Shown: one piece after another, positions 1,962 through 24,898 of the stretch
Layout of the letters: the number at the start of each line of letters is the position of its first letter
Position numbering within the stretch: position 1 is the first letter of the stretch
DNA from: Octopus sinensis
Taxonomy: Eukaryota
Direction: 5' to 3'
Assembly: GCF_006345805.1 (NCBI RefSeq)
Contig: NW_021836255.1
Coordinates: 1-25,009, forward strand
DNA length: 25,009 bases
Notes under the pieces: generated by a model
Told to the model about the DNA's origin: nothing
The model's database searches: none
Seen by the model: only the letters and a program-made list of their open reading frames with translations
Program-made: the position numbers and the translations under genes

Positions 1962-2739
1962 TATTCTCAACTCTCTCACGAGATATACTAATAGTATTTT
2001 CTATTTCCTTTATAGGCAATCGCCAGTCATCCACCTCTATGGATGGTAAACACGATTAATGTTTTCTTCGGTGGTGGGCAGTTGCAGAACGTCCAGACTT
2101 CGGATGACCTTCAAGAAAGTGTCGCCCTTCCTCTCCTAAATTCAGCTGCACACTTTTGCAATGTTGATAAGGCTAGTGCATCATCATCAAATATCATCAC
2201 GAACGTCCTTGGGAGCTAAACCCTATTCTCTACAGATACTTCGTAACAGAGAAGTCACTACTAGTTACTTTTGAAGTTTTTGAATACTCGGATGATACTT
2301 TATCTGGAAAGAAACAAAACAATATGTAAAAAGAAACGTTCAATTTGAGTGCATACAAGATTTCAAACATCTTGCATCGCTCCTTCATAGCCAGCTTATA
2401 AAATTTTCGGCCCAGCCTCGTATTTGGACAAGAATAACTACTAAATATTGAATACAATGAAGAGTATTTGATATACTAATCTCCGTTCTTTAGATAAAAT
2501 ACATGTCAGTGGCCATTTTGAATTATTTTTACGGCATCTTCGTTTCACATATATGAAATATAGGTCGGCTTTTAAGACAGTTCCTGTGGAAGGCTCTTCA
2601 TTATGCCTTGGGCCCAATAACGACACTTCATGCATTAAGTACATATAAAATTTTATTAAACTTGACCAATATTTTTCAAGCAATGAACAATTTTCTTCAA
2701 AGCAATGATATAATTTAGAGCAGTTGTATACTGTCAGCT

Positions 2740-2977
2740 TAATGTGACAGTCCCATAAAGGGAATCATACCACTGCTACTTAGCCCTAGGAAACATCGAC
2801 GCTTCCTGTCGGCTTTGACACATTTCCTGTGTCCTTATGTTTACAAGGGGGAGACAAGCACTCCTATCCAGCCAAGCCTGCATCCAGAGACTAGTTTCTG
2901 AGTTTTGCTCGTCATCAGTCTGGAGTAGCATTGTTTGCTAGCTGGCTGCAGATGCTTGTCTAGGCCTTGTAAACATA
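2740..2977 (-). mobile_element. Highly structured non-coding repeat (retrozyme-like or Penelope pLTR-like) carrying HHR-2
   Basis: Nested inverted repeats 2836-2848/2965-2977 (13 bp perfect), 2852-2860/2953-2961 and 2869-2874/2943-2948 enclose an HHR. Further small hairpins lie at 2817-2833, 2797-2811 and 2751-2763. Boundaries are approximate. Confidence 0.65.
2883..2924 (-). ncRNA. Minimal type I hammerhead ribozyme (HHR-2)
   Basis: Minus strand: TCCAGA-CTGATGA-C-GAG(caaaa)CTC-A-GAAA-CTAG-TC-TCTGGA. 6-bp stem I, intact core, palindromic ACTAGT stem III, GUC cleavage triplet. Stem II is short, with a C.A mismatch at its base. Confidence 0.8.
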
Positions 2978-3159
2978 TAATAATTCCAGTGAAATAAATC
3001 CACTGATCACAAAAAATAGAAATATTACATTTCTAAATATCTCTTGTTGACTTGGAACTTATTGCAAAGCTCTATGATAAGAAACAGTACCACCAACATA
3101 GAGACCACATCTGCCATGCACACACTATTCAGCCTTTTTGTGATGGTAATAGGGTAATA

Positions 3160-12414: not shown

Positions 12415-12538
12415 GGTTCCGGGTTCAATCCACTGCATGGCACCTTGGGCCAGTATCTTCTACTATATATATAGAAGACAAAAGCCTTGTGAGTGTATTT
12501 GGTAGACGGAAACTGAAAGAAGCGCATTGTATATATAT

Positions 12539-12581
<43 letters not shown>

Positions 12582-12717
12582 TGTATATATGTATGTATGT
12601 ATGTATTATGTATGTATGTATGTATGTATGTATGTATGTATGTATGTATGTATGTATGTATGTATGTATTATGTATGTATGTATATGTGTGTGTGTATTT
12701 AGGTAGATAGATAGACT

Positions 12718-12780
<63 letters not shown>

Positions 12781-12960
12781 CGTTTAAAGACACACATACA
12801 CACGTATATTGGTATGTTTACGTCCCCGGTTCGGCAAAAGAGACCGATACAATAAGTACTAGGCTTACAATGAATAAGCCTTGGAGTCGATTTGTTGGAC
12901 TAAAGGCGGTGCTCCAGCATGACCGCAGTCAAATGACCGAAACAAGTAAAAGAGTAAGAG
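12413..12960 (+). mobile_element. SINE family A copy, 5'-truncated, with an expanded internal microsatellite
   Basis: GGTTCAATCC B-box-like motif, TTTGGTAGACGGAAACTGAAAGAAG body and GGCGGTGCTCCAGCATG..CAGTCAAATGAC tail, matching the copies at 18317 and 20100. Confidence 0.88.
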
Positions 12961-12970
12961 AGAGAGAGAG

Positions 12971-13016
<46 letters not shown>

Positions 13017-13515: not shown

Positions 13516-14013
13516 TCGTTAGTAAATATGTATTAACAAACGCACATGCATTCGTGGTCAGGTGCACGTACACACTTTGATTTCTATAAGAATGAAGCAA
13601 TGTCTGTCAGTTTGCCATATCTAATCTCGAAGCCCAATGAGTAAACATGCAGTAATAAGTTGTGGGGAACAGGGTTTATTTTAACGAGATACTTCTTGAA
13701 AATCACCTGAGGAAGCACATCTGATCTGAAGGACGTAGTATACCACACCCGAGGGGCATCAATGCTACATGGATAGAAACGATTTTTGTGACCAATAAAG
13801 ATTCTCGTATATTCCATCCTCCGTATCTCTTATTAATTCCATACTCGACGAACACTGAGGAATTCCTAAGGTAGATCCAGTGACATAATGATAATACTAC
13901 AGATGTCATTAGCTGACCATAGGAAGTGAACGTGCTTCGACGGCAAACTACCAAATGTATACAATATGCTTTATTAATTACTAACTACATACACTCATAC
14001 ATGCGTATATATA

Positions 14014-14992
14014 TATATATACGATTGTATCAGCGTGACCTCACTCTCTCGTGAACAACTAGACTCATTCCTCTCTTTTGTCCAATCCTACCATCCTGAC
14101 CATGATAGTGCAACATTTCTGGCGGAATACACCAGTCCGCTCTCACTACCTCCATCCACTACAAACACACTGACACACACTATTACCTCAACTTCTCTTC
14201 CCACCCTACCCACACCAAGCTCTCCTTCCCCTATTCCCAATTCCTCCGTCTGCGCAGGTTCTGCAGTGACAACCATGACATTGAGACTCAGTCCCCTCAC
14301 CACTATTCACACTGCCCTTACCAGGGCACGATCTGTTGATCGTGCCTCTACTATTTATCCTCGCATCCGCCCCGCCGTTGCCCGTCTCCCGTTTCCTCTC
14401 ACCTACCACCCCTCCACCCTGCCCCTCCAATGTACCATTCTCCTAGCTTACCGGCGACCTTAGTCCGACCCCTCTACCTTGCACATCTTCTTCAACCTAC
14501 CCCTTCCCTCGCTCAAATGATTCCATATCCTGTGCGACCTCCTGGTCCACAGTTTCTTCCCTAAACCCATCGCCTAGCCTGGCTCGTTCTCCTGCTCCCG
14601 TCCACGTTGTCGCACGTGGCGCCATCACTCCAACACCACCATCCTCGCAGGCACCCATCATCGTTCCTATCGCATCACCGACTCCATTACCTGCACTTCT
14701 AGTAACGTCATTTACTACATCTTCTGCTCTCTCTGTCCTTTCCTGTACATCGGTTAAATGGGACGCCGCTTGGCTGACCGATTCGCGGAGCACCTCCGAG
14801 ACATCAGACTTGGCAATGACATCCCGGTCTCGCACCATCTCTACTCTACCAGTCCTTCGCTACGACATCTGTCTGTGTTCGGAGTGTTTTTGCGCAGAGG
14901 ACATCCGGACTCCTGCCTTCGTCGTGAACAGGGATTAATCTTTTGTCTTCGCTCTTTTGTACCATATGGCCTCAACTCTCCTCCTTTCTACA
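14014..14992 (+). pseudogene. Penelope-like retroelement remnant: RT C-terminus plus GIY-YIG endonuclease
   Basis: Multi-frame translation gives YIYDCIS (decayed YIDD), SREQLDSFLSFVQSYHP, LTTSIHYKHTD, PYSQFLRLRRFCSD, PFPLTYHP, CSRPRCRT, NVIYYIFCSLCPFLYIG*MGRRLADRFAEHLRDIR and REQGLIFCLRSFVPYGLN. It contains stops, frameshifts and deletions. A CA-rich 3' region runs to ~15480. Confidence 0.9.
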
Positions 14993-15747: not shown

Positions 15748-16118
15748 TACTTTTTGTAAGCTTGGTACTTATTCTATAGGTTTTTGTTTGTTGAACCCTA
15801 AGTTACAAGGACGTGAACAAACCAACAGCGGTCATCAAGCGGTCATCAAGCGGTCATCAAGCGATCGTGGGGATCAAAAGCAAATACAAAGTTACGCACA
15901 TATTGATTTACACATATACAGATATAAGTATAAATATAAATATATACGGGGGCTTCTCTCAGTTTCCATCTACCAAATCCACTCACAAGATTTTGGTCGG
16001 TCCGGGGCTACACAGTGGAAGACACCTGCCCAAGATGCCACGTAGTGTAACTGAACCCAGGAGAATGTGGTTGGAAAGCAAACTTCTTACCCTACAGTCA
16101 TCTAGCATTGTGCCTGCG
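15748..16118 (-). mobile_element. SINE family A copy (diverged)
   Basis: CAGTTTCCATCTACCAAATCCACTCACAAG and GAAGACACCTGCCCAAGATGCCAC match family A. Contains an internal 11-bp triplication. Confidence 0.85.
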
Positions 16119-18260: not shown

Positions 18261-18316
18261 TAAGTCCTGTTCTTATTTCATCGCCTTTTCTCTCGTTTTC
18301 TCCATCTCTCTCTTTT

Positions 18317-18724
18317 TTTACTCTCTTTTACTTGTTTCAGTCATTTGACTGCGGCCATGCTGGAGCACCGCCTTTAATCGAGCAACTCGACCCCGGGACT
18401 TATTCTTTTGTAAGCCCAGTACTTATTCTATCGGTCTCTTTTGCCGAACCGCTAAGTGACGGGGACGTAAACACACCAGCATCGGTTGTCAAACAATGCT
18501 AGGGGGACAGACACAGACACACAAACATACACGCACACACATATATATATACATATATACGACGGGCTTCTTTCAGTTTCCGTCTACCAAATCCACTCAC
18601 AAGGCATTGGTCGGCCCGGGGCTATAGCAGAAGACACTTGCCCAAGATGCCACACAGTGGGACTGAACCCGGAACCATGTGGTTGGTTAGCAAGCTACTT
18701 ACCACACAGCCACTCCTGCGCCTA
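18317..18724 (-). mobile_element. SINE family A, full-length and young-looking
   Basis: Minus-strand head TAGGCGCAGGAGTGGCTGTGTGGTAAG...GGGTTCAGTCCC, internal (TA/TG)n, and tail GGCGGTGCTCCAGCATGGCCGCAGTCAAATGACTGAAACAAGTAAAAGAG. Confidence 0.92.
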
Positions 18725-18787
18725 TTTTCTTCTTACTCCTTTGCCCTTTATGTTCCTTTTTTATTTTTTTTTTCTAAGCCATCATCG

Positions 18788-20088: not shown

Positions 20089-20099
20089 TAATATAATAA

Positions 20100-20445
20100 T
20101 AGGCGCAGGAGTGGCTGAGTGGTAAGTAGCTTGCCTACCAACCACATGGCTCTGGGTTCAGTCCCACTGCGTGGCATCTTGGGCAAGTGTCTTCTGCTAT
20201 AGCCCCGGGTCGACCAATGCCTTGTAAGTGGATTTGGTAGACGGAAACTGAAAGAAGCCTGTCGTATATATGTATATATATGTATGTGTGTGTATGTGTT
20301 TGTCCCCCTAGCATTGTTTGACAACCGATGCTGGTGCGTTTACGTCCCCGTCACTTAGCGGTTCGGCAAAAGAAACCGATAGAATAAGTACTGGGCTTAC
20401 AAAAGAATAAGTCCCGGGGTTGAGTTGCTCGATTAAAGGCGGTGC
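20100..20445 (+). mobile_element. SINE family A copy lacking the end of its 3' tail
   Basis: Close reverse-complement match to 18317-18724; stops at GGCGGTGC. Confidence 0.92.
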
Positions 20446-22035: not shown

Positions 22036-22319
22036 TTTACTCTCCTTTACATGTTTCAGTCATTTGACTGCGGCCATACTGGAGCACCGCCTTTAGTCGA
22101 ACAAATCAACCCCGGGATTTATTCTCTGTAAGCTTAGCACTTATCAGGGGTTTTTTTTGCCGAACCGCTACGTTACGGGGAGGTAAACACACCAACATCG
22201 GCTGTCAAGCGATGTTGTGGGGACGAACTCACACACAAACACACACACACACATATATGACGGGCTTCTTTCAGTTTCCATCCATCAAATCCACTCACAA
22301 GGCTTTGGTCAGCCCAAGG
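22036..22319 (-). mobile_element. SINE family A copy, 5'-truncated
   Basis: TTTCAGTCATTTGACTGCGGCCATACTGGAGCACCGCC tail plus the family A body. Confidence 0.88.
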
Positions 22320-24720: not shown

Positions 24721-24736
24721 CATACATACATACATA

Positions 24737-24898
24737 AAACGAGCTTCCACAGAATTTCCTTCAGCCAAATTCATTCACAAGGCATTGCTCGTTCCGGTGC
24801 TATACTGAAAGACATTTGCCCAAAGTGTCTTGCAGAAGAACTGAACACGAAACCACGTTGTTGTAAGATGGGCTTCTTAACCACAAAGCCCTGACTAC
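24737..24898 (-). mobile_element. Old family-A-like SINE 5' half
   Basis: CCAAATTCATTCACAAGGCATTG, GACATTTGCCCAA, ACTGAAC and CTTCTTAACCACA resemble the family A head. Confidence 0.7.

Follow-up and report, generated by a model that had tools for sequence, protein, structure and literature searches.

A hammerhead-bearing retrozyme family in Octopus sinensis with Penelope-like insertion anatomy

The window, a 25,009-nucleotide stretch of the Octopus sinensis genome (contig NW_021836255.1), carries a structured repeat copy on its minus strand at positions 2717–3043. By matching it to a natural unit of the same family (L030:1407-1757, numbered u1–u351), we determined that the copy comprises u29–u351, at 3043–2717, of a retrozyme unit of ~351 nt. 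It is a 5΄-truncated monomer that has neither the tail nor the inverted partner found in other insertions of the family. The parts of the copy and the adjoining repeat are as follows.

2717–3043, minus strand: whole insertion, defined by the match to L030:1407-1757 and by host-repeat contig joins
3017–3043, minus strand: 5΄-most retained part, which in other copies makes up the distal half of the optional 3΄ tail and stops at the second of the fixed ends
2987–3005, minus strand: small hairpin upstream of the rod
2836–2977, minus strand: rod extending helix I, from folding and from pairing in 35 copies
2879–2930, minus strand: type I hammerhead motif, including distal helix I and a UAC bulge
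2890–2895, minus strand: helix III, a palindrome (ACUAGU) whose predicted partner is another hammerhead
2817–2833, minus strand: hairpin 1 with a GACAC stem; the sister families (B and C) have a similar one
2797–2811, minus strand: hairpin 2
2751–2763, minus strand: hairpin 3, CCC/GGG
2732–2749, minus strand: hairpin 4, which has a CAC-AUUNAG loop and is retained in all three families (A, B and C) although its stem varies
2717–2731, minus strand: first fixed 3΄ end of the family (u349–351), from end positions across insertions
2566–2716, no strand assigned: left half of a high-copy host repeat, whose right half lies at ~3046–3140

The borders were fixed with contigs that join position 2714 directly to 3044 (8, 8, 6 and 3 contigs in the four sequencing runs compared), which represent further copies of the interspersed host repeat rather than an orthologous empty site. 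Judged from these joins, the window copy has no target duplication. A previous reading of the sequence alone (hereafter the sequence-only reading) had delimited the element at 2740–2977, which is too short, and had listed three hairpins beyond the rod; a fourth lies at 2749–2732. The full unit with its ends, the Penelope-type insertion anatomy and the palindromic helix III also escaped that reading. The window copy is probably an ordinary, dead insertion. In one sequencing run presumed to be RNA, contigs cover both the element and the adjoining host repeat, at a depth similar relative to a DNA-like run.

Several other repeats are visible in the window. A mariner-like transposase remnant, identified by eye, occupies approximately 950–2300 on the minus strand and is interrupted by a separate plus-strand repeat at 1638–1950 (1943 first-look candidates in the genome). 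By eye the head of the latter resembles a tRNA; its middle consists of (AAT)n, and near its 3΄ end it has a minimal hammerhead of the type found in Penelope-like elements (PLEs), at 1866 on the plus strand with an ACGU palindrome. This is the sole other hammerhead-like motif with clear helices in the window; the repeat around it is distinct from the 2717–3043 element and may be a tRNA-SINE whose tail derives from a PLE. ARAGORN called no tRNA in the window. At 13987–14841 on the plus strand lies a decayed PLE coding remnant (reverse transcriptase and GIY-YIG endonuclease), pieces of which are 22–60% identical to intact PLE proteins of this genome. A further interspersed repeat has copies at 12415–12971, 15752–16100, 18305–18726, 20098–20445, 22036–22315 and 24722–24863.

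The hammerhead motif and hairpins proposed for the minus strand were all found, part by part, where they had been placed. Helix I pairs 2924–2919 with 2888–2883, CUGAUGA lies at 2918–2912, helix II at 2910–2900 with C and A on its flanks, and GAAA at 2898–2895, within a GAAA-CUAG-UC string that ends at 2889; cleavage is predicted between 2889 and 2888. The sequence thus follows the type I order (CUGANGA, GAAA and UH with helices I–III), and the core pattern is present in 73 of the 88 copies that span it. No hammerhead model was among the Rfam matches listed (one listing being the best 150 of 183). Three nested helices were likewise present as described, extending stem I over 2836–2977: 13 bp (2977–2965/2848–2836), 9 bp (2961–2953/2860–2852) and 6 bp (2945–2940/2873–2868, with G·U). 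The three hairpins noted earlier lie at 2833–2817, 2811–2797 and 2763–2751. We folded the minus strand of 2700–2990 and obtained a minimum free energy of –106.4 kcal/mol, compared with a mean of –75.5 for shuffled sequences (z = –6.3; none of 200 shuffles as stable). The rod and hairpins appeared in this fold, but the helix III region was wrongly paired to the catalytic core.

In natural tandem copies the unit is seen to be closed and 351 nt long, with a GC content of 42% and predicted cleavage after u179. Copies that reach upstream of u1 run, without exception, into u351 of their own unit. The longest stop-free frame in the natural tandem copy is at most 52 aa and none in the unit is longer, which upholds the original statement that there is no open reading frame; in particular, no frame with reverse transcriptase and GIY-YIG domains was found in the unit, which is therefore not an autonomous PLE. 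There is no layout of LTR, primer-binding site and polypurine tract, and both length and GC content fall within the range of non-LTR retrozymes (150–450 nt, GC <50%). A genome search returned 3406 first-look candidates, the best 40 scored copies being 89–93% identical. One exact 28-mer occurs 414 times genome-wide (control, 0), mostly at dispersed positions, and the sequence is accordingly multi-copy. Because copies differ by ~6% from the column-majority letter and the exact 28-mer is this frequent, the family probably has a few thousand members. In the literature on octopus ribozymes and retrozymes, and on tailed, inverted non-autonomous Penelope-like hammerheads, we found no description of the family (repeat libraries and two supplements lay outside this scope); literature on the helix II mismatch likewise gave none, and one octopus repeat paper did not mention ribozymes.

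Two further families with the same layout were recovered, and we refer to the family of the window copy as family A. Family B (L147:173-430, L171–L200 and L231) has a 354-nt unit, 3234 first-look candidates and its own hammerhead, in which Y·A forms the base of helix II and the palindrome of helix III is longer (CCCGGG or CUCGAG). Family C has a 358–359-nt unit with a U3–A8 core, a canonical helix II and a CCGG palindrome (L232, L233 and L245–L274); it is represented by 108 exact hammerhead 29-mers, and its copies are 3.7% apart and hence younger. Among the 100 family C matches listed, 6 same-strand pairs lie ~358 nt apart. Hammerhead and rod sequences of families B and C differ from those of A, while the ribozyme at the rod apex and the palindromic helix III are kept. 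The three families align poorly overall, and what they have in common is a tail hairpin (78–92% over 32–36 nt) together with two hairpins recognized by inspection, GACAC and, with its stem altered, CAC-AUUNAG. The young family C is the best candidate for activity tests. It is covered by one presumed-RNA run and absent from two, although contig depth is a poor measure and gives no evidence either way.

We then examined whether the rod is maintained among copies. In 35 copies, 96.4% of rod cells pair. There is little covariation: both partners are altered in 4 of 42 pairs, a number reached by 49 of 500 shuffles. The double-sided changes occupy 9 cells (0 of 500 shuffles), and only one of them is common to several copies. 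At paired columns that vary among 31 full units, pairing is preserved by 30 of 35 common alleles, chiefly through G·U on the hammerhead strand, a count that is biased because the structure was derived from that strand itself. From the 35 rod regions, RNAalifold recovered the 13-bp helix and the greater part of the 9-bp helix; the 6-bp helix and the hammerhead were missing. In circular mode on 47 units it failed to recover the rod, whereas folds of single copies, averaged over 31 units, contained it.

For the natural monomer running from one cleavage site to the next, the rod is predicted to join both ends, alike in linear and circular RNA. The circular fold has a predicted energy of –117 kcal/mol (z = –6.3 versus 60 shuffles) with 68% of positions paired. 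The proposal that the long helix would keep the cleaved ends together is thus coherent with the predicted structure. Size, the extent of pairing, the hammerhead in the predicted circle and the coexistence of many subfamily variants could also suggest the DNA footprint of a viroid-like RNA that replicates from RNA to RNA. We consider this very improbable, since the hammerhead occurs in one polarity only and the copies, ~6% from the majority letter, act as ordinary retroposed DNA. Viroid-like replicons often carry ribozymes in both polarities. Nothing supports the label viroid-like that the element had been given, there being one hammerhead, on one strand.

The hammerhead itself shows signs of maintenance. 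Subfamily variants fall in none of the 13 core and 12 inner helix I columns, compared with 43 of 346 columns overall, a modest depletion (roughly P = 0.04). Private mutations affect the core at 3.4% versus 4–6% elsewhere, and a rate near that of other positions is expected for dead copies. Helix III consists of one pair and a palindrome, for which the tetramers CUAG and CAUG occur 330 and 76 times genome-wide and the two single-change forms together 8 times; three sampled copies have a duplicated CAUG. Self-pairing of the palindrome is predicted to yield about –6 kcal/mol and that of the single-change intermediates –1.1 or worse. The switch between CUAG and CAUG may have been a single event. 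That helix III stays palindromic points to cleavage as a dimer, and hammerheads with palindromic helix III have been described as cleaving in this form (PMC4209133; PMC7229834). We consider dimer self-cleavage modestly more probable than not. Furthermore, core and palindrome persisted while subfamilies replaced one another, and three families whose hammerheads differ have both, which argues for selection on ribozyme function.

Other features are less canonical. Next to the core, where a hammerhead has the G10.1–C11.1 pair, the base of helix II is C·A rather than G–C in 65 of 92 copies; a G–C pair is present but flanked by C or U and an extra A, the latter preceding GAAA. The arrangement recurs in family B. 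In the natural dimer, forcing the palindrome helix between the two hammerheads costs a predicted 7 kcal/mol. In frog retrozymes, 8 of 9 predicted dimers are reported without cleavage in vitro (10.64898/2026.07.22.740005).

To characterize how copies insert, we took the first 100 entries in the list of 414 matches (contigs C1–C4) and analyzed 90 loci from them, anchored on the 3΄ motif; after removal of 3 duplicates, 87 insertions remained. Of these, 46 were simple and 41 contained an inverted, 5΄-truncated partner in head-to-head orientation. Outer 3΄ ends were fixed at two sites 55–60 nt apart, namely u344–351 or, in copies with a tail, mostly u50–66. Simple copies comprised 27 without and 18 with the tail, and 1 that ended elsewhere. 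When 9 complex loci were set aside, 32 inverted pairs had both outer ends classifiable, and in all 32 (17 + 15) the tail was present on exactly one end (P about 6 × 10⁻¹¹ under independent tails). The same pattern was observed in family C, where 19 hammerhead-anchored insertions comprised 8 simple tailless copies and 11 inverted pairs, 10 with one tail and 1 with an 11-nt stub; family B shows the two-end anatomy of family A by inspection.

In contrast to the 3΄ ends, the 113 5΄ ends of the family A sample were scattered along the unit. They did not pile up at the predicted cleavage site (3 within 2 nt versus 1.7 expected, P = 0.24), and thus there is no genomic trace of cleaved linear templates; 58 sampled segments read through the site. 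Ten of the 87 insertions were longer than one unit. Tandem arrays, which had been suggested as something to look for, were not a feature of the family: two loci (L051 and L084; 2/87 insertions) had two head-to-tail hammerheads each, L030 had three, and no long array was seen.

We next searched for direct repeats of at least 8 nt flanking the 52 insertions without microsatellite flanks. Target duplications of 8–15 nt (including a few shared end bases) were found in 17 of the 52, compared with 2.4% of shuffled flank pairs, and were distributed as 13 of 22 inverted and 4 of 30 simple insertions. A microsatellite adjoins 32 of 117 natural 3΄ ends, compared with 3.1% of 25,416 background positions and 4 of 46 5΄ flanks. 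Often the microsatellite on the 3΄ side repeats the last bases of the element (CT after CTCT, ATT after ATT, CTAT after CTAT), frequently on that side only (L037, L039, L072, L073, L075, L082, L087 and L106), which could reflect either targeting by microhomology or slippage of the reverse transcriptase that seeds the microsatellite.

These observations bear on whether the element is a MITE or other DNA fold-back element with the 13-bp inverted repeats as termini, the alternative that the sequence-only reading had itself named. A long imperfect inverted repeat and frequent TA-rich flanks would be expected of such an element. However, the 13-bp arms are internal (u95–107 and u220–232), the target duplications surround the whole insertion, the ends are asymmetric (3΄ fixed, 5΄ scattered), units are permuted and tandem, and common variants keep pairing mainly via G·U on the hammerhead strand. 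The element is not a MITE as far as these features can tell, and we regard that explanation as extremely improbable. The classification as a non-autonomous hammerhead-bearing retroelement of the non-LTR retrozyme kind holds, given the multiple copies, the 351-nt unit with 42% GC and the structure kept among subfamilies.

The halves of individual insertions resemble each other more than copies at different loci. At subfamily-diagnostic sites, agreement within an insertion was 88% (42 inverted and 21 head-to-tail comparisons) versus 60% between loci, and rare variants were common to partners 7–8 times more often than between loci. In family C, partners differ at 1.5–1.9 positions per 100, versus 3.7 between loci. 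This agreement suggests a single template, or a single source, for both halves, although it could also have arisen by gene conversion. One locus (L003) is an exception in which two subfamilies, CUAG and CAUG, stand head-to-tail, either because a later copy inserted next to an existing one or because the template was switched.

The insertion scars are those of Penelope-like elements. PLE insertions have been described with partial tandems, an inverted 5΄-truncated copy and a tail that is usually confined to one end (10.1101/2021.04.23.441226). The PLE protein of an anole, assayed in vitro, nicks both strands of AT-rich DNA and extends them, and it starts at two adjacent sites inside the RNA, the interval between which constitutes the tail (PMC11167929). 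We accordingly propose that the element spreads as RNA copied by a PLE enzyme, and consider it likely that this non-LTR retrozyme is mobilized by a PLE protein in trans; the enzyme is proposed from insertion anatomy, and the fixed 3΄ ends would be start sites of reverse transcription. Hairpin 4, which lies ~15 nt before the first fixed 3΄ end and is kept in all three families, is a candidate recognition signal for the reverse transcriptase.

Potential helpers exist. The genome contains 5029 first-look GIY-YIG candidates and intact frames of 762–883 aa that have a reverse transcriptase together with a GIY-YIG domain at the C terminus, and several intact PLEs have their own palindromic hammerheads downstream of the coding frame, ending at (AT)n. 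Intact or near-intact PLE frames (L151–L156, L164 and L161) are followed by hammerhead variants with U3–A8 cores and ACAUGU, GUAC or GCGC palindromes. No autonomous partner with the 3΄ module was found in 50 PLE loci (GIY-YIG search and shared-tail pattern), nor was there pLTR homology in these loci, a shallow sample drawn from ~11 clusters in which 18 of 30 came from one family. In L170 a GIY-YIG remnant lies 2 kb from a family A copy, and L152 has a match that resembles the hairpin; both were judged to be due to chance.

It might be argued that the unit is the pseudo-LTR (pLTR) of an unseen autonomous PLE and that its copies are truncated 3΄ ends of that element. The anatomy and the hammerhead position are those of PLE pLTRs, and only ~280 loci of a 2.7-Gb genome were sampled. 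However, what precedes u1 is u351 of the same unit, in a closed loop, and in none of 150 family A and B loci or 44 others is the unit joined to PLE coding sequence, from which the few matches by tblastn do not detract, as they are separate from the unit. We therefore regard this explanation as improbable.

The principal alternative accepts mobilization by a PLE and differs in the template: a partial tandem would be transcribed into linear RNA that stays uncut, the hammerhead acting late, rarely or not at all, and no circle being needed. It accords with the 58 segments that cross the cleavage site, the lack of a 5΄-end excess there, the weakness of helices II and III, and the report that hammerhead mutations in an anole PLE left insertion in vitro unaffected, unprocessed RNA being the dominant substrate (PMC11167929). 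The maintenance of core and palindrome through subfamily turnover and in three families argues against it. Head-to-tail units are also near-identical, as if a circle had been read repeatedly, although a homogeneous tandem source fits equally well. We regard an uncut template as a substantial possibility that is somewhat below an even chance. A ligated circle as the template comes close to an even chance but does not reach it.

On mobilization by a PLE in trans, the cycle could proceed as follows. A rare head-to-tail copy would be transcribed, and the palindromic helix III would let two hammerheads pair and release a monomer, whose ends the rod is predicted to hold so that ligation into a circle is possible. 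The conserved 3΄ hairpin module would be recognized by a PLE protein, which would introduce a nick in AT-rich or microsatellite DNA; reverse transcription would then begin within the RNA, at either of the two sites 55–60 nt apart. Priming on one target strand would give a simple 5΄-truncated copy such as that in the window, priming on both strands with a different start site on each would give an inverted pair with a single tail, and reverse transcription past one unit would give partial tandems.

A more elaborate version is speculative and, in our judgment, rather unlikely. At least three circular ribozyme RNAs of ~355 nt with interchangeable hammerheads would parasitize one PLE enzyme through the common 3΄ hairpin module, and a dimeric PLE would prime both strands, each subunit having its own start site. 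Within this version, subunit-specific start sites on one circular template would account for exactly one tail per inverted insertion. If it is true, the module would be the first cis-signal, and the unit a minimal natural substrate, for retrozyme and PLE integration.

Elements of this kind are already known (PMC7229834; 10.64898/2026.07.22.740005), and it is the evidence on movement that is unusually direct here. A 2020 review described animal retrozymes as having no conserved motif that reveals the helper retrotransposon (PMC7761336). The octopus insertions themselves bear the PLE-specific tail and inversion signature, and three families have a common 3΄ module at the putative start sites, which adds evidence at the level of insertions as well as a candidate cis-signal, the latter being what that review called lacking. 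If the PLE helper is true, it names the helper of animal ribozyme retroelements, and an RNA of 350 nt makes it possible to test which enzyme moves retrozymes and whether the hammerhead and the circle are needed.

Compared with the metazoan non-LTR retrozymes described in coral, mussel and axolotl (PMC7229834), the octopus element has a similar non-coding unit (170–400 nt there, GC under 50%) with a type I hammerhead, a highly paired predicted circle with the ribozyme exposed, and target duplications of more than 4 bp. Its one-pair helix III with palindromic loop resembles the axolotl HHR_Amex1 and the newt satellite motif, both of which cleave as dimers according to the same source. Unlike those retrozymes, the octopus copies are mostly dispersed and 5΄-truncated rather than arrayed, and are known from genomic sequence alone; the fixed twin 3΄ ends and inverted partners seen here are not among the features that we found described for them. 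The schistosome hammerhead SINE-like repeats are similarly short, both dispersed and tandem, and of type I (PMC6765202). A pol III promoter has been reported for them, whereas no promoter was identified for the octopus unit and the window yielded no ARAGORN tRNA call.

With EN+ PLEs, the octopus family shares 5΄ truncation, partial tandems, the inverted partner and the one-end tail (10.1101/2021.04.23.441226), as well as AT-rich or microsatellite targets and a hammerhead in which helix III is palindromic and CUGANGA is followed by an additional base (PMC4209133). It differs from PLEs in having no open reading frame and a longer tail (55–60 nt in family A and ~43 nt in family C, versus 30–40 nt), and from the minimal PLE hammerhead in its 6-bp helix I with a bulge and short helix II. 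The extra A before GAAA in the octopus unit is a feature that the published PLE consensus does not include. Vertebrate retrozymes have been interpreted as non-autonomous PLE derivatives on the basis of co-occurrence and pLTR homology, the mechanism of mobilization being left open in that account, and their families range from arrays to monomers (10.64898/2026.07.22.740005). Our conclusion on the helper is the same as that drawn for vertebrates; it was reached there through homology to autonomous elements, whereas in the octopus, where we found no homologous autonomous pLTR, it comes from insertion anatomy and the common 3΄ module.
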